A DNA stretch of 35,622 bases from Bacteroidales bacterium (GTDB lineage Bacteria; Bacteroidota; Bacteroidia; Bacteroidales; UBA12077): positions 1 to 35,622 of the forward strand of contig DAOVYZ010000001.1 of assembly GCA_030635365.1 (NCBI GenBank), in the 5' to 3' direction. Under the pieces are notes generated by a model, which saw nothing but the letters and a program-made list of their open reading frames with translations, was not told the origin of the DNA and made no database searches. This document shows positions 11,648 through 32,340 of this stretch, piece after piece (the first letter of the stretch is position 1; each line of letters begins with the position of its first letter). The position numbers were made by a program, and so were the translations under genes.

Positions 11648-12565
11648 ATGGAAATAAAGCAAATTGACAATCTTAGCAATGAGATTTATCACAATGGAGA
11701 CCAATATAAAGATTACTGGTCAAGTTCAAACCTCAAAGAATACCTGAAAACACCACGTGAGGCCAGATATCAAAAGATTGATGCAGAAAAAAGAGAGAGT
11801 AATGCCATGGACTTTGGCAATTATTTTCATGACTTTTTAGCTTCAAAACATGTGAAAGGTCAGCCGTTTGAATGGAATATCTTTGAACCTCCAACCAATC
11901 CAAGTACCAAAAAATATTACGGAAAAGACAGCCAAAAATATAAAGATGCATTAAGCCATATTATTAATCCAATTTCATTAGATGATATGGAATTGATTCA
12001 AGACATTTGGCAAATGATAAGGAGTTCAAATTATAGTTGGTTTTTTGAACAGCAAATTTTGAGCAAAGGAATTGCAGAACCCTCTTTTTTTGTTGATGGA
12101 ATGCATAAATATAAATACCGTCCCGATGTAGTGACAGATAGGTTTATTTTTGATTACAAATCTATCGATAAAAGATACTGGAAAGCTGATAAACTCAATT
12201 ATAGAATACTGGAATTTGAGTATGATATAAGTGCTGCTATGTACCAATATTTTGAACATGAGCGAACCGGAATTTGGAAGCCTTTTTTAATTATCTGGCT
12301 TATGAAAGACCCTCCTTTTGATATTCTTATAAGTGATATTTCACAATATTGCTTTGAGCCCATTGGTAATAATGAGGTAATTGTCAATTCCGGGGCTATG
12401 GTATTCCTTAAGCTAAAAGATCAACATGAAGCTTGCCAGGTAACAAATCAATGGCCGGGGCTTGCTAATCAATTTGACAGCTACAATGGTCTGAGATTAG
12501 CTAATTTTGCACCCAGATATGACCGGGGCTTTGATGAATTTGAAATTGAATTAGATAATTTTTAA
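11648..12565 (+). CDS. PD-(D/E)xK exonuclease, RecE/exonuclease VIII-like. It is the probable partner of RecT.
   Basis: The N-terminal LSNEIYHNGDQYKDYWSSSNLKEY and the core YRPDVVTDRFIFDYKS (D...D-x-K) match the phage RecE-like (DUF3799-type) nuclease pattern. It lies upstream of recT. Confidence 0.65.
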   Translation: MEIKQIDNLSNEIYHNGDQYKDYWSSSNLKEYLKTPREARYQKIDAEKRESNAMDFGNYFHDFLASKHVKGQPFEWNIFEPPTNPSTKKYYGKDSQKYKDALSHIINPISLDDMELIQDIWQMIRSSNYSWFFEQQILSKGIAEPSFFVDGMHKYKYRPDVVTDRFIFDYKSIDKRYWKADKLNYRILEFEYDISAAMYQYFEHERTGIWKPFLIIWLMKDPPFDILISDISQYCFEPIGNNEVIVNSGAMVFLKLKDQHEACQVTNQWPGLANQFDSYNGLRLANFAPRYDRGFDEFEIELDNF

Positions 12566-12575
12566 AATAAATGAC

Positions 12576-12797
12576 ATGGATAGTTATAGGCATAAAGCAC
12601 GCAAAAATTATAAATGTGATTATTGTAAAGGCATTATAAAAATTGGTGAAATTTATGAGTTAGGAAAAGATAGAATACCTGTTTTTGAAACTGATAGAAT
12701 AGATGCAATTTATGGATATGATGGTAAACAAACAGGAATTGAATATGTTTCATGGAAAATTTGTTCTAAATGTTTAATTGAATTTGAAGAAATATAA
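12576..12797 (+). CDS. Small zinc-ribbon protein, 73 aa.
   Basis: It has the Cys pairs CDYCKG and CSKC. Confidence 0.45.
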   Translation: MDSYRHKARKNYKCDYCKGIIKIGEIYELGKDRIPVFETDRIDAIYGYDGKQTGIEYVSWKICSKCLIEFEEI

Positions 12798-12807
12798 TTT
12801 TTAAAAC

Positions 12808-13026
12808 ATGATCGAATCTAAAAATAAAATACAAAAAAGCCGTCTTGAATATGCTGAAATGATGATTTTAGAACTCGGTTTTGATATTGTTTCCGCTAAT
12901 AAAACCGAATTACGATTTGAATTTAACGGAAACACTGTATATTTTTTCCCTTTTACCGGTTGGCATTCTGGGAAAACTATTCAAGACGGTAGAGGCTTAA
13001 ATAATCTTTTAAAACAATTGAAATAA
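12808..13026 (+). CDS. Hypothetical protein, 72 aa.
   Basis: ORF with an ATG start. The motif FPFTGWHSGKTIQDGRGLNNLL looks conserved, but I cannot name the family. Confidence 0.45.
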   Translation: MIESKNKIQKSRLEYAEMMILELGFDIVSANKTELRFEFNGNTVYFFPFTGWHSGKTIQDGRGLNNLLKQLK

Positions 13027-13051
13027 ATTCTTTTTTATCAAATTAATGTGT

Positions 13052-13059
13052 TAAATTTG
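13052..13059 (+). promoter_or_regulatory. Candidate -7 promoter box (TAAATTTG).
   Basis: It matches TAnnTTTG 30 nt upstream of the recT ATG, in a 62-nt intergenic gap. Confidence 0.3.
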
Positions 13060-13088
13060 TAACAATAAACTAATTAAAATAAAGCAAA

Positions 13089-14159
13089 ATGAGTAATATT
13101 AAAAAAGCGTTAGTGCCAGACCTGAAAAATAAAAAGGTCGAAGATATTGTACAATTAGTACAAAATGTCTATGATAATAATGGATTATCAACTGAATTAG
13201 AACTTCAGTTCATTCAGCTAAAGATAAATGAAAGCCCTCAGCTTTTGAGAGCTGTAAAAGCAAATCCTGAAAGCCTGTATAATTCAATCTTACAAGCTGC
13301 CGAAAGTGGTTTATCTCTTAATCCACAATGGCAGGAGGGATATTTTGTGCCGTATAACATGAAAGTTGATGGAAAAGAAGTTCCTACAGTTACATTTTCA
13401 CCAATGTACAGAGGTAAAAAAAAGCTACTTATTTCCAAAGGAATTGTAAAGAATATCCTTACTGAATTGGTTTATGAAGGTGAGGAGTGGGATGAGAAAA
13501 TTAATAATGGTGTTCGTGAGATTCATCATATACCAAATAGTTTTAAGCGAGCAGACCATACAAAAATAATTGGTGGTTATGCAATCATTATTTTAAACAA
13601 TGATGAAAAGCAATATGTAGTAAAAGGCCGGGATTATTTCGAGCGATGTTTGGCAGCAAGCAAAAGGAAAATGAATGGTAAAACTTCACCAGCATGGAGA
13701 GATTGGTACGATCAAATGTGTAAAAAATGTCTTATAAATGCCGCTGATTCTGAAATCCCAAAAATTGGCGTTAATGCTAAGGTGACTCAATTATTAAATG
13801 ACATTAATACAAATGATGTTGATTATGTTGATGTGACTGATGAAAAAACAGGAAAATTACCAGAACCTAAAAAGAAGCTCTCCATGCATGAATTTTCTGA
13901 TTTGATTGATAAGCTATTACGATATGAAATTTCATTGAAATCGGCACGCCAAAAGTACAAAGGATATGATTTTACCGATAAACTAAAAGATGAAATTAAA
14001 AAAGCCGGAACTATAACCGATGAACGATTAACCGAAATAATTAACTTGGTTATTGCTGATAAAAAAGAACTTACTCATTTCGAGTTCTATCTTGATGAAA
14101 TCCAATTTGAAACGCTTAAGAATGCAATTGTTGATCATACCATGCAAAATGAAAAATAA
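13089..14159 (+). CDS. recT: RecT-family single-strand annealing recombinase.
   Basis: LRAVKANPESLYNSILQAAESGLSLNPQWQEGYFVPY...FSPMYRGKKKLL follows the RecT core pattern: S...al..aA.lGL.p.....ay.iPy......iGY.G. It pairs with the upstream exonuclease gene. Confidence 0.7.
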   Translation: MSNIKKALVPDLKNKKVEDIVQLVQNVYDNNGLSTELELQFIQLKINESPQLLRAVKANPESLYNSILQAAESGLSLNPQWQEGYFVPYNMKVDGKEVPTVTFSPMYRGKKKLLISKGIVKNILTELVYEGEEWDEKINNGVREIHHIPNSFKRADHTKIIGGYAIIILNNDEKQYVVKGRDYFERCLAASKRKMNGKTSPAWRDWYDQMCKKCLINAADSEIPKIGVNAKVTQLLNDINTNDVDYVDVTDEKTGKLPEPKKKLSMHEFSDLIDKLLRYEISLKSARQKYKGYDFTDKLKDEIKKAGTITDERLTEIINLVIADKKELTHFEFYLDEIQFETLKNAIVDHTMQNEK

Positions 14160-14319
14160 ACTATTAACCGTCAAACAATATGCTGAAGTTGAGGGAGTCT
14201 CGACTTCGGCTATTTATAACCGTATCAAAAGAGGGACACTAATTAAGGTCTTCAGATATGGAATTACGTTTGTATTTTTTCGAGAAGATAAGACAATTAA
14301 GAAACCAAGAATAAAATAA
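14149..14319 (+). CDS. Small HTH DNA-binding protein of the HTH_17/excisionase type, 56 aa.
   Basis: From ATG 14149 the translation is MKNKLLTVKQYAEVEGVSTSAIYNRIKRGTLIKV. This overlaps the recT end by 11 nt. I reject the longer track start at 14053, which lies inside recT. Confidence 0.55.
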   Translation: MKNKLLTVKQYAEVEGVSTSAIYNRIKRGTLIKVFRYGITFVFFREDKTIKKPRIK

Positions 14320-14330
14320 AATATTTTGAT

Positions 14331-14546
14331 ATGGAAACAACAATTACAATTTACACTCAAAGCAGCCGACAAATAAAGGCTTACAAAAAAGTGAAAAAAG
14401 TAATTCTTTCTTGTAACAAAAAAGAACAAATTAAAGGTGCGAAACGGATGGTATTTTTATTCCATGCAAAATTCAGGTCATTATATTTCTATATGAAATT
14501 AATAGATTTTTTAAACCACAAAGAACGTGAATTTGAACAGAATTAA
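14331..14546 (+). CDS. Hypothetical basic protein, 71 aa.
   Basis: ORF only. Confidence 0.4.
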   Translation: METTITIYTQSSRQIKAYKKVKKVILSCNKKEQIKGAKRMVFLFHAKFRSLYFYMKLIDFLNHKEREFEQN

Positions 14547-14576
14547 AAATAACACCTCCGAATAAAGGATTTAACT

Positions 14577-14597
14577 ATGATATTAAAGCGATTGTAA
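14577..14597 (+). other. Six-codon upstream mini-ORF (MILKRL-stop) that duplicates the first codons of the methyltransferase gene.
   Basis: ATGATATTAA occurs at 14577 and again at 14602, the true start that encodes MILRRL. The two copies are 25 nt apart. Confidence 0.3.
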
Positions 14598-14601
14598 GGA
14601 A

Positions 14602-15375
14602 ATGATATTAAGAAGATTAGGAAATAAAAAGAAATTAGCCAAACAAATCCAGGCATACTTTCCACCGCATAAAATTTATATTGAACCATTTTTTGGCGCC
14701 GGTGGTATGTTTTTTAATAAGCCAAAAGCAAAATATAATATTGTGAATGATTTGGATTCAGATGTATTTAATTTGTTTCAAGTGGTAATGAATCAAAAAG
14801 AAGAACTTGAAAAAGCTTTTTATATTATGCCTATTCATTCTGATTTATTGGAGTACTGGAAAAATAATTTAGAAACTGACCCGATTAAAAAAGCTTTAAG
14901 ATTTTTATTTTTGAGTAATTTTACATTAATGGGTCAGAGAGGAAATTTAAGATTTGGCGAAAGACAAGATAAGAATATGTTTTATGAAAATATAAATGAC
15001 ACTTTTAAAAAATTGGAATCTGTTCAATTTAATAATTGTGGTTTTAAAAATATATTTAATAAAATAGAAATAAGGGATAATACCATACAAGATATATTTA
15101 TTTATTTAGATCCACCATATTTGCATTTAGATGATAAACGGCCCTATAATGGGCATAATTTCACAGAATCCGATTCTATTGACTTATTCGAAGAACTTGA
15201 ACAAACAGGTTGCAAATTCGCATACTCAGAATTTAACAATCCTTTTATTTTAGATCAGGCCAAACAAAGAAATTTAAACATAATTTATATAGGCGAAAGG
15301 CAAAATTTGAAGAATCGCAGAACTGAAATATTAGTAACTAATTATCAAAATCAACAAAAAACTATTGATTTCTAA
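14602..15375 (+). CDS. dam: Orphan Dam-type (D12 class) N6-adenine DNA methyltransferase.
   Basis: Motif I is EPFFGAGGMFF, followed by IVNDLDSDVFNLF. Motif IV is YLDPPY. The order matches alpha-class Dam enzymes. I recognise no restriction endonuclease gene nearby. Confidence 0.8.
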   Translation: MILRRLGNKKKLAKQIQAYFPPHKIYIEPFFGAGGMFFNKPKAKYNIVNDLDSDVFNLFQVVMNQKEELEKAFYIMPIHSDLLEYWKNNLETDPIKKALRFLFLSNFTLMGQRGNLRFGERQDKNMFYENINDTFKKLESVQFNNCGFKNIFNKIEIRDNTIQDIFIYLDPPYLHLDDKRPYNGHNFTESDSIDLFEELEQTGCKFAYSEFNNPFILDQAKQRNLNIIYIGERQNLKNRRTEILVTNYQNQQKTIDF

Positions 15376-15394: not shown

Positions 15395-15793
15395 ATGGAA
15401 ACTAAAATTATATATCTAGTATTGAGTGTATTCGGATTGTCTTATGAAGCTGTTTTTATAATAGGTAGAAAGTCAAGAAAACGAGAATTGGTAATATGTA
15501 GACAAACCATACATTATTTTATACATGAAAAAACCAAATATACACTTGGCGAAATTGGAAACCTAGCGGGCGGAAAAGATCATGCAACGGTCTTGCATTC
15601 AATTAAGTCGATAAAAGCTATTAAATCTACTAATTTCAGGCCTTATTCTGATTATATAAAATACATACTAAGTCAAATTAATTACAGTTACTGGGATTAT
15701 ATTACAGATTTAAACAAACCTATTAAAATCAAGTACCCAAAGATAGCAACTAAGAATTATATATTTTATGAACATTCAAATTTAATAATTTAA
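15395..15793 (+). CDS. Stand-alone DnaA C-terminal (domain IV) HTH-like protein.
   Basis: GRKSRKRELVICRQTIHYFIHEKTKYTLGEIGNLAGGKDHATVLHSIKSIK parallels the DnaA domain IV signature R.r.i...Rq.amYL.r.lt..Sl..IG..fGgrDHtTVlha..ki. There is no AAA+ domain in its 132 aa. Confidence 0.7.
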   Translation: METKIIYLVLSVFGLSYEAVFIIGRKSRKRELVICRQTIHYFIHEKTKYTLGEIGNLAGGKDHATVLHSIKSIKAIKSTNFRPYSDYIKYILSQINYSYWDYITDLNKPIKIKYPKIATKNYIFYEHSNLII

Positions 15794-16392: not shown

Positions 16393-16400
16393 TATATTTG
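16393..16400 (+). promoter_or_regulatory. Candidate -7 promoter box (TATATTTG) upstream of the replication gene leader.
   Basis: It matches TAnnTTTG 110 nt upstream of the ATG at 16510. The leader holds an 8-bp inverted repeat, ACTCTCAC (16424-16431) and GTGAGAGT (16466-16473). Confidence 0.35.
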
Positions 16401-16509
16401 CATTATGACTTCAAAACTCTCACATATCAAGAAAACATTTTTAAAGCATGGTTGATTTTAGGCTCGTGAGAGTGCCTATTGTTGGCTGTGCTTTGTTTAT
16501 TTAATCCTT

Positions 16510-17256
16510 ATGAATCAAGGTTTTATTTTGCTGCATAGAAAGTTTATGTCCTGGGAGTGGTATCAGGATAAAAATACAAAAATCTTATTCATTCATTGTC
16601 TTCTAAATGCAAATTTTGAGGAGAAAACATGGCAAGGAATCACAATTAAAAGAGGTCAATTTTTCACCTCAATAAATCACTTATCAATTGATCTTAAAAT
16701 GTCAATTAAGGAAATTAGGACTGCTTTAAAAAAATTACAAAAAACAAATGAAATTGTTCAAAAAGGGGCAAGCAATGGGACAATGATAACAGTTTGTAAA
16801 TATGATAGTTATCAAGAAAAACAAAAACCAAAGGGCAAACGAAGGGCAAGCGAGGGGCAAGGCAAGGGCAAGCGAGGGGCAACAACTAACAATGATAAAC
16901 AATTAAACAATGATAACAATGTAAACAATAAAGATATATTATTCACTTATGAAAATTTCATTTTTCTTTTCAATGAAATAACAAAACGAAACTTCAAAGG
17001 AGATTCAAAAAGCGAAGGCCATTTTAACCAAAGAATTAAAAAATACAATGGTGCTGAGTTTGGAATTGCAATTCGTAATGCTTTTAATGATGAATATTTA
17101 CGCCAAAATCCAAAATATCTTACACCGGAATACATAACCAGGGAAAACCAGATTGAAAAATGGTTAAATGTGGTTGAGGGAGAAGAAACCAACGGCAAAT
17201 TTAAAAAACCTGATTTTGAAAAAATAAAAGAATATGGACGAAAACTAAACAAATGA
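16510..17256 (+). CDS. Replication initiator or organiser protein. It has an N-terminal winged-HTH domain, a K/G/R-rich linker, and a conserved phage C-terminal domain.
   Basis: The N-terminus GFILLHRKFMSWEWYQD...RGQFFTSINHLSIDLKMSIKEIRTALKKL is typical of phage replication wHTH proteins. The C-terminal FNEITKRNFKG...RIKKYNGAEF..AIRNAFNDEYL...KYLTPEYITR resembles the conserved phage C-terminal domain (TIGR02220-like, from memory). Confidence 0.6.
   Translation: MNQGFILLHRKFMSWEWYQDKNTKILFIHCLLNANFEEKTWQGITIKRGQFFTSINHLSIDLKMSIKEIRTALKKLQKTNEIVQKGASNGTMITVCKYDSYQEKQKPKGKRRASEGQGKGKRGATTNNDKQLNNDNNVNNKDILFTYENFIFLFNEITKRNFKGDSKSEGHFNQRIKKYNGAEFGIAIRNAFNDEYLRQNPKYLTPEYITRENQIEKWLNVVEGEETNGKFKKPDFEKIKEYGRKLNK
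16842..16882. repeat. Perfect 19-bp direct repeat AAGGGCAAGCGAGGGGCAA, two copies with a 22-bp period, plus a partial third copy at 16831. It is iteron-like.
   Basis: The copies lie at 16842-16860 and 16864-16882. They form a GC-rich island in AT-rich DNA and are translated in different frames (RASEGQ versus KGKRGA). An AT-rich tract with AACAATGATAA repeats follows at 16887-16935. Confidence 0.85.
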
Positions 17257-17969
17257 AAACTACAAATATCAGACTATTAGATGAAAACCAAATAAATGAT
17301 TTATCTTCAGAACTATTTGAATATATTTGCGGCGTTTATGATATTAAAGCACCTGATGAAAAATTTTATCACTATTTCATTACTTACATGAAAAAGTATT
17401 TTGGTTTCATGACTTTTGAGCAATTAGAATCTGCTTTTGAATTAAATTCTTTAAACTATTTAGATAACTTCCTGCAAAAAATTGGACAAAGGCCAGACAA
17501 TAAAATTAAGTCATTTAATATACCAGATTTAGTCAAGATAATAAATGCTTACAATAATTATAAAGGAATTCAAAAAAGTGATTCAACAGATATTTACAAT
17601 CCATTTACAAAAAAATCAGAGCCAGGGGGAGCTAAAATATTAACCGAAAAGCAAAAGCATGAATCTATGAATAATTGGTGTGATCGTTTATGCCAAATAT
17701 TTGAAAAGTACCGTGATGAATTTGAAAAAACTACAATAGCTATTCCTTTGTTCACTTGCCAGATATTAGCTAAAAATGGGGCTTTGGATTATAAAGATAT
17801 TGATATGACAGAAAAAACCATTAGTATTAAAATAGGAAAATATCAGGGAAGTAATTCAAATGAAGATTTAATTTATAAAACTTTTGATAAAATTATTCAG
17901 GATCAAAAACATGTTGAAGATTATCTAAAACATCAAAGAAGTAAATATTCACAAGAAATGCCTTATTGA
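17253..17969 (+). CDS. Hypothetical protein, 238 aa, translationally coupled to the replication gene.
   Basis: Its start forms an ATGA overlap with ORF 16510. I see no NTPase motif. Confidence 0.5.
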   Translation: MKTTNIRLLDENQINDLSSELFEYICGVYDIKAPDEKFYHYFITYMKKYFGFMTFEQLESAFELNSLNYLDNFLQKIGQRPDNKIKSFNIPDLVKIINAYNNYKGIQKSDSTDIYNPFTKKSEPGGAKILTEKQKHESMNNWCDRLCQIFEKYRDEFEKTTIAIPLFTCQILAKNGALDYKDIDMTEKTISIKIGKYQGSNSNEDLIYKTFDKIIQDQKHVEDYLKHQRSKYSQEMPY

Positions 17970-32231: not shown

Positions 32232-32236
32232 AAGAT

Positions 32237-32308
32237 TATCATGTAGTGTAATTGGCAACACGCGGGGTTCTGGTCTCTGAACTTTGGGTTCGACTCCCTT
32301 CATGATAA
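32237..32308 (+). tRNA. tRNA-Gln, anticodon CUG.
   Basis: Hand fold. The acceptor stem pairs TATCATG with CATGATA (7 bp, U1-A72). U8 and A14 are present. The D stem pairs GTGT with ACAC, and the D loop has GG. The anticodon stem pairs CGGGG with CTCTG, and the loop is TT-CTG-GT. The T loop is TTCGACT, flanked by GGG/CCC. The two outer T-stem pairs are U-U mismatches. No CCA is encoded. Confidence 0.7.
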
Positions 32309-32340
32309 TTTTTTAGTAATTATATAATAGTTTGTAATGA

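Follow-up and report, generated by a model that had tools for sequence, protein, structure and literature searches.

A probable iteron-type replication origin within the initiator gene of a Bacteroidales phage-like contig, with a layout shared across a phage family

An array of five 11-bp direct repeats followed by an A/T-rich tract lies inside a replication initiator gene of contig DAOVYZ010000001.1, assigned to a Bacteroidales bacterium (assembly GCA_030635365.1). Judging from sequence comparisons, this element is probably the replication origin of a phage, that is, an iteron-type origin located inside the very initiator gene whose product would serve it. The stretch analysed, hereafter the window, comprises 35,622 nucleotides, corresponds to a metagenome scaffold of 36.1 kb and is phage-like, with genes for a tape measure protein, protease, portal, terminase, RecT, exonuclease and methyltransferase. 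The gene that hosts the element (16510-17256, forward strand) encodes a protein of 248 aa and was recognised from its open reading frame (ORF), PHROG matches and tblastn. As is typical of iterons, the repeats are tandem and direct, spaced at whole helical turns, uniform within a locus and divergent between loci. The layout is likewise that of an internal origin, with a homologous N-terminal domain (N-domain), at least three direct repeats at the boundary between the N-domain and the C-terminal domain (C-domain), and an adjoining A/T-rich region.

A first-pass annotation of this DNA had pointed to two perfect 19-bp repeats and one partial copy, with a period of 22 bp. These copies are indeed present: the 19-mer AAGGGCAAGCGAGGGGCAA is exact at 16842-16860 and 16864-16882 and recurs with 2 mismatches at 16831-16849. 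The chance expectation for the 19-mer is 0.02, and three matches were reached in 0 of 100 dinucleotide-preserving shuffles. The search for more, which the annotation had suggested, returned no further copy on either strand of the 35.6-kb window. The base period, however, is 11 bp, one helical turn, rather than 22 bp. Tandem Repeats Finder reported a period of 11 bp with 4.7 copies of the unit AAGGGCAAGCG at 16831-16882, gave the 22-bp reading as well, and scored these repeats highest among all tandem repeats of the window. We describe the array as five 11-bp iterons arranged head-to-tail on the forward strand (16831-16885), starting at 16831 (AAGGGCAAACG), 16842 (AAGGGCAAGCG), 16853 (AGGGGCAAGGC), 16864 (AAGGGCAAGCG) and 16875 (AGGGGCAACAA). 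Their core GGGCAA is constant, and each flanking position that varies has either A or G. The 22-bp unit was rejected as the basic period because the order of unit variants differs among three close relatives that all keep the 11-bp unit; the 19-mer/22-bp pattern is thus specific to this window.

The 11-mer is translated in all three frames and, as the annotation had stated, the two perfect 19-mers are read differently within ORF 16510-17256, the first as RASEGQ and the second as KGKRGA. The array has a G+C content of 62%, compared to a window mean of 31.6%, which places it in the top 0.04% of 55-bp windows, and it is enclosed by a run of 74 nt free of T on the coding strand (16813-16886, forward), the next-longest such run in the window being 33 nt. 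Outside the array, the 9-mer core RGGGCAARC has a single match in the window, 67 bp upstream within the initiator gene, and no second repeat cluster was found in the 35.6 kb.

The element coincides with a predicted disordered linker of the initiator, as the array encodes aa 108-125 and the A/T-rich tract aa 126-141. An AlphaFold2 model built from 61 homologues (mean predicted local distance difference test score, pLDDT, 78) places a winged-helix N-domain at aa 1-105 (16510-16824, forward; pLDDT ~90), which we presume to be the iteron reader. The modelled winged helix spans residues 5-102, with helix 3 at aa 66-78 and the wing strands at 82-87 and 90-95. It is followed by the linker at aa 106-141 (16825-16932, forward; pLDDT <50 at 106-115 and 117-141) and by a helical C-domain at aa 147-248 (16948-17256, forward; helices at aa 147-219 with pLDDT >90), the presumed module for recruiting the helicase or another partner. 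The earlier placement of the repeats between a winged helix-turn-helix (wHTH) domain and a C-domain therefore agrees with the model. A Foldseek comparison with the PDB returned generic wHTH repressors only, at an expectation value (E) of 0.03 or worse, which confirms the fold class but points to no specific relative; a PDB sequence search with the initiator gave chance matches only.

Relatives of the initiator were found by tblastn against phage genomes, with matches confined to the N-terminal half of the protein. They included Vibrio phages (~50%), Cellulophaga phage phi18:3 (41%), genes annotated as 'replisome organizer', and P22-like gp18 or 'replication protein O' (27%). Each of the first four loci examined has an 11-bp array at the homologous place: Vibrio 1.135.O (unit CAAGGGCAAGC, 5.8 copies), Vibrio 1.085.O (CAAACGAATAG, 5.3 copies), Cellulophaga phi18:3 (AAAGGGCAAGC, 4.8 copies) and phage L (TGTCCAACGGA, 2.8 + 2.5 copies). 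To avoid circularity, the wider search of IMG/VR used an alignment of the N-domain alone (aa 1-105) and yielded 80 loci at 44-59% identity; more than 490 relatives are present in that database, and the family spans Vibrio, Cellulophaga, Salmonella and gut phages. Family counts refer to 78 distinct loci, the window included, and an array is a Tandem Repeats Finder call with a score of at least 40 within 155 bp past the N-domain. By this measure, 68 of the 78 carry an array of 11-bp period at the homologous spot. The linker zone, 12 kb in total, contains 71 period-11 arrays, against 5 in 234 kb of flanking DNA, and its lag-11 autocorrelation is 0.61, compared to ~0.3 elsewhere. Several of the array-negative loci carry periods of 12, 22 or 23 bp instead.

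While period and position are kept, the unit itself turns over. It differs by lineage, with GGGCAAGC, GGGACAACAA, TAACAAACAA, TGACAAACCA, TAACACCCAA, AGGGCAAGCGA, AGGGACAACAA, ATAACAAACAA, ATGACAAACCA, GTAACCAAGCA, ATAACACCCAA and TCCCACACAAA among others, and has the general form NNNN-CAA-R-C-N-A. Identity within an array is 0.7-1.0, many different units are seen between loci, and copy number ranges from 2.3 to 7.1. Units that are alike within a locus and divergent between lineages suggest the concerted change typical of iterons that track their reader. Family arrays are also poor in T (5%, compared to 28% in N-domain coding DNA). It is this T-poverty that characterises the family, and the G+C-rich island described by the first-pass annotation, although real in the window, was rejected as a defining trait, since the array is richer in G+C than its gene in just 49 of 70 cases. 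In the linker zones of four loci (L006, L026, L052 and L084) we also observed a 33-bp super-period of higher identity than the 11-bp one (93% vs 70% in L006), as would be expected from in-frame duplications that copy three units at once.

The DNA of three closer homologues, with 83%, 61% and 71% aa identity over the aligned part, allowed synonymous sites to be compared. All three keep five units, and GGGCAA is constant in 20 of the 20 units of the four relatives, the differences being confined to A/G exchanges at flanking positions. The fraction of invariant third-codon positions among these four is 0.83 in the iteron array, 0.73 in an upstream segment at 16760-16791 that carries a further iteron, 0.42 in the remaining N-domain, 0.29 in the A/T-rich tract and 0.24 past the tract, where the C-domains are simply different. 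The array is thus the part of the gene best conserved at synonymous sites despite encoding a disordered linker, and this argues strongly for a DNA element that acts in cis.

These values bear on whether selection acts on the linker peptide, K/G/R-rich and then N/D-rich, for instance through non-specific DNA contacts, with the DNA repeat being incidental. The nearest relatives do share a similar linker peptide (KPxGKxxASEGQxKGKRGATTNN), and the tract that follows the array is read in frame as (N/K)(N/K)(D/E) repeats in many lineages. Across the family, however, the 11-bp DNA period persists through linker peptides as different as K/G/R-rich, N/Q/T-rich and T/H/Q-rich ones; an 11-mer read in three frames gives no matching peptide repeat; and a peptide constraint does not account for third-codon positions being most conserved precisely in the array. 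We regard this explanation as highly improbable, and the 11-bp period cannot stem from selection on the peptide. The first-pass annotation had argued for a cis-acting element on the grounds that the DNA rather than the peptide is conserved, and had named peptide conservation with loss of the repeat as the observation that would speak against it; the opposite was found, with DNA periodicity retained and the peptide not. Since the linker peptide is barely constrained, selection at the DNA level can set its sequence, and persistence of the 11-bp period, even though slippage by one unit shifts the frame, speaks for selection on helical phasing.

Upstream of the array, within DNA encoding the wing hairpin, a solo iteron GGGGCAAGC (16765-16773) is followed by ACAATGATAA (16780-16789), both on the forward strand (16765-16789). 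The surrounding segment, 16760-16791, is 91% invariant overall in the four relatives, and repeat families tie the upstream ACAATGATAA to the A/T-rich tract, where this sequence is present twice. In other lineages the homologous wing segment resembles each lineage's own array unit: its best match scores 9.56 of 11 against the own unit and 7.92 against unrelated units, while in a control segment of the N-domain own and unrelated units score alike (7.54 vs 7.47). In a permutation test with nine representatives whose units are mutually different, 5 of 20000 permutations reached the observed sum. Two or three wing copies 11 bp apart occur in some loci (L064, L050, L018, L024 and L002), but several upstream iterons at this spacing were rejected as a family trait, the lag-11 autocorrelation of the wing region (0.33) being no higher than that at other lags. 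From these comparisons, a single co-varying iteron copy emerges as the robust upstream finding.

The co-varying copy also bears on the idea that the repeats arose neutrally, through replication slippage in a disordered linker of low complexity, and have no role as DNA. The predicted disorder of the linker, the many near-perfect arrays, which suggest recent homogenisation, and the variable copy number would all fit slippage. Slippage tolerated in coding DNA should nevertheless favour multiples of three, whereas the frame-shifting period 11 dominates in the linker zone over period 12 (71 vs 11 arrays). Nor would slippage lead one to expect that period and position persist across N-domains only 27-59% identical while the unit changes, that conservation at synonymous sites exceeds that of the folded domain, or that a copy outside the array co-varies with it. 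We therefore consider slippage alone an improbable explanation.

DNA encoding the last part of helix 3 and the wing (16741-16795 in the window; anchor -96..-30 in L002, L008, L015, L018, L019, L024, L050, L056 and L064) was observed to contain 1-3 of the phage's own iterons. Since the wing DNA contains the iteron, the wing peptide varies with iteron type: KGASNG is found with GGGCAAGC, KGYNKY with GGGACAACAA and ITIKTTNK with TAACAAAC. A by-eye search for covariation between helix 3 residues and the bases of the unit prefix was discarded, the visible correlation being confined to the wing. Because the wing overlaps the upstream iteron copy, the correlation between wing residues and iterons is at least partly a consequence of that overlap and is unusable as a recognition code. 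One could speculate further that the DNA for the wing is itself a copy of the site that the initiator binds, such that gene conversion with the iterons would rewrite the site and part of the surface that reads it together. We hold this to be doubtful; if true, it would offer a self-referential route to new origin specificities, could explain the large diversity of 11-mers in the family, and would turn ~70 natural initiator-iteron pairs into a ready-made dataset on the recognition code.

Immediately past the array lies the presumed DNA-unwinding element, an A-rich tract of 9-bp period (16886-16935, forward) with the unit TAACAATGA, read in frame as Asn-Asn-Asp. Tandem Repeats Finder assigned a period of 9/18 bp to 16887-16929, with the same unit, and the tract contains 29 A and 11 T per 50 nt, with a G+C content of 16-18%. 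The A/T-rich repeats that the first-pass annotation had noticed downstream are thus present, although by the standards of this genome their composition is not extreme. In the family as a whole, the 45 bp past the array are 58% A, with G+C of 0.22 compared to 0.36 in the flanks, and are lower in G+C in 65 of 70 loci; the lag-9 autocorrelation is 0.54 in the 50 bp past the linker zone and ~0.3 elsewhere. A 9-bp array follows the position of the 11-bp array in 41 of the 78 distinct loci. The tract appears to keep its composition and not its sequence, as would be expected of an unwinding element.

Both alternative frames of the array run into stops in this tract (TAA, TGA within TAACAATGATAA). Together with an array period that is not a multiple of three, this is what one would look for in a slippage-prone frameshift switch, in which gain or loss of a unit truncates the initiator past its N-domain and leaves a regulatory DNA-binding fragment. 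The reading frame through the array is nevertheless intact in all 78 loci and in all three contigs with an identical protein, no frame-shifting copy-number variants were seen among them, and a switch of this kind leaves both the co-varying upstream copy and the A-rich tract unexplained. Of the explanations weighed here, we give this one the least credence and think it very improbable indeed.

An internal origin has precedents, of which phage L is the nearest. The window N-domain aligns end-to-end with aa 25-129 of phage L gp18 (28% identity, pairwise E 1e-14), and the tblastn match to the phage L/ST64T-type gp18 has an E of 3e-6. The 11-bp repeats of phage L gene 18 have been described as its likely origin and compared with the ~20-bp iterons of lambda O and P22 gene 18 (PMC8022706), and in GenBank MW013502 the gene 18 repeats TGTCCAACGGA are annotated as rep_origin. 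Phage L and the window share the homologous N-domain, the 11-bp period and the position of the repeats inside the initiator gene, on the coding strand; following a common KYDxxQ motif, the repeats start after 3 codons in phage L and 5 in the window. They differ in unit sequence and in arrangement, phage L having two clusters (2.8 + 2.5 copies, ~36 bp apart) and the window a single array of five. Phage L is without a clear 9-bp A/T-rich array, which the window has, and its next gene encodes a DnaB-type helicase, whereas the window has a 238-aa gene of unknown family there and no detectable helicase.

In lambda, the origin within gene O (four ~20-bp iterons and an A/T-rich region) also lies near the boundary between a DNA-binding N-domain and a partner-binding C-domain, with the iterons preceding the A/T-rich region, and there too the C-domain can be exchanged independently of the N-domain and origin, which stay together. 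Each lambda iteron has internal dyad symmetry and binds a dimer of O. Lambda iterons are ~20 bp long (PMC8022706), whereas the window units are 11 bp, asymmetric and head-to-tail, one per helical turn. At the protein level, PHROG families for 'replication initiation O-like' proteins match the window protein (8e-7 and 2e-6), as does, more strongly, a DnaD-like helicase loader (PHROG 2514, 1e-24, aa 1-140). Pfam Phage_rep_O (PF04492), by contrast, matches neither the window protein nor phage L gp18 and is absent from the top 14 families of 61 homologues, and no P-like loader was recognised in the window. For want of a Phage_rep_O match, the window protein is not, strictly speaking, a member of the lambda O family; the first-pass proposal of an internal origin like that of lambda O thus stands as a comparison, consisting of an analogy with lambda and a remote homology to L-type gp18. 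The only Pfam hit of the window protein is HTH_36, below threshold. Among the 61 homologues, DnaD_N matches 4 (best 2.6e-4) and Phage_rep_org_N matches 1, weakly (0.005); no DnaD-type C-terminal domain was detected in the window protein.

Lambda O and SPP1 gp38 both bind direct repeats in their own genes beside an A/T-rich unwinding element (PMC8022706, PMC6316719). In SPP1, oriL lies inside gene 38, and it is there that gp38, the replisome organizer, binds direct repeats (PMC6316719); some relatives of the window protein carry this same annotation. SPP1 differs in having a second origin, oriR, as well as its own loader, gp39, and helicase, gp40, while the window has no second cluster and no helicase that we could find. 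A broader resemblance is to replicons outside phages. In iteron plasmids such as pSC101, F, R6K and pPS10, a winged-helix Rep protein binds tandem direct repeats beside an A/T-rich region, and iteron sequence and initiator co-vary between replicons. Plasmid iterons are typically 17-22 bp long, spaced by ~22 bp and located outside the rep gene, unlike the 11-bp units inside the coding sequence of the window, and no homology was detected between the window protein and the Rep proteins of plasmids. An element arranged in this way inside an initiator gene is familiar from lambda, SPP1 and phage L and is unsurprising to a specialist. In the literature that we searched, the coverage of which was incomplete, the family-wide layout is undescribed apart from the note on phage L; the family-wide grammar and the co-varying iteron copy in wing-coding DNA appear to go beyond it.

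Past the A/T-rich tract the family falls apart. The C-domain is common to only 2 of ~88 loci and unrelated in most relatives, and similarity to L086, L087 and L088 was seen to stop ~50 bp past the tract (window 16936-17256). This stop, together with the unrelated C-domains, indicates a recombination joint at the origin, comparable to the mosaic replication modules of lambdoid phages. The next gene (17253-17969, forward), a candidate partner or loader of 238 aa, overlaps the initiator stop as ATGA; its product has one hit only, weak and to a PHROG without assigned function, and homologues of it occur near the initiator in L086, L087 and L088.

The joint raises a different possibility, namely that the repeats do bind the initiator but serve mainly in autoregulation by roadblock, in copy-number control, or as the recombination joint between N- and C-modules, with the origin lying elsewhere. 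The collapse of close-relative similarity right past the tract, with C-domains swapped there, would fit, as would a solo iteron farther upstream within the gene and the lack of an origin signal in the G+C skew. Yet the 35.6-kb window has no other repeat cluster or iteron at which such an origin might lie; the pairing of array and A-rich tract, kept in 65 of 70 loci, is the classic layout of an origin and is unneeded for a roadblock; and the same layout is a functional origin in lambda and SPP1. We judge a mainly regulatory or recombinational role to be unlikely and favour replication initiation at the element.

Several observations weigh against an origin at this place. No helicase, known loader, primase or polymerase is recognisable anywhere in the window. 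Cumulative G+C skew, one of the checks that the first-pass annotation had listed, rises steadily without marking an origin; with every gene on the same strand, a monotonic rise is expected and the skew carries no information about the origin. For G+C content the A/T-rich tract ranks only among the lowest 3-6% of windows, and at synonymous sites the four relatives do not share its exact sequence. Two loci, L034 and L037 (anchor 0..+125), have neither an 11-bp array nor a 9-bp tract past the N-domain; either their origin is elsewhere or they depend on another replicon. Furthermore, no Pfam family is above threshold for the window protein, its C-domain or four homologues, and the origin of phage L, the closest known system, has itself only been inferred.

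If the element is an origin, its operation can be sketched by analogy. From lambda O/ori, SPP1 gp38/oriL and phage L we infer that site binding, melting, helicase recruitment and the start of replication would all take place here. The winged-helix N-domain (aa 1-105) would bind the five iterons and the solo site in its own gene; since each helical turn of the array carries one site, monomers would line up head-to-tail on one face of the DNA. Such a nucleoprotein array could distort the helix and so open the adjoining A-rich tract (16886-16935), whereupon the C-domain, possibly with the translationally coupled 238-aa product, may bring in the host replicative helicase. The helicase-recruitment steps are conjecture, since neither a helicase nor a known loader is identifiable in the window.

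Other features around the element were recorded as well. Before the initiator gene, TATATTTG lies in intergenic DNA at 16393-16400 and fits TAnnTTTG, the -7 promoter motif of Bacteroidota; an inverted repeat with perfect 8-bp arms, ACTCTCAC / GTGAGAGT, separated by 42 nt, lies at 16416-16473. The two may be the promoter and operator of the replication operon, and may hint at the phylum of the host. A scan for promoters and terminators gave results not above shuffle expectation. A hairpin-type origin or a structured RNA was ruled out by single-strand folding of 16800-16960 (z = -0.2), and an Rfam scan of the entire window returned a tRNA only, with nothing at the array locus. This tRNA-Gln (anticodon CTG; 32236-32309, forward), on which ARAGORN and Rfam agree, is situated amid structural genes. 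Genes for recombination and DNA modification form a module upstream of the replication genes on the forward strand (11648-15375), comprising an exonuclease (11648-12565), a RecT-like annealing protein (13089-14159) and a DNA methyltransferase (14602-15375). A 132-aa ORF (15395-15793, forward), three genes upstream of the initiator, matches DnaA domain IV (Pfam Bac_DnaA_C, E 2.7e-15). With 11 one-mismatch matches where 13 are expected, the window shows no enrichment of DnaA boxes, and no link between the element and this ORF was found.

Taken at the strength given above, these results narrow the probable origin of an uncultured, low-G+C phage to ~200 bp and name its initiator, the DNA-binding domain and the likely binding sites. 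For the family they suggest a grammar in which a winged-helix domain is followed by 4-7 iterons of 11 bp in linker-coding DNA and then by an A-rich tract of 9-bp period; this would provide a simple rule by which origins could be annotated across thousands of phage genomes. The matched pairs of proteins and sites may be used in studies of winged-helix specificity, and the element would be a clear example of a DNA-level function overprinted on a disordered coding region.

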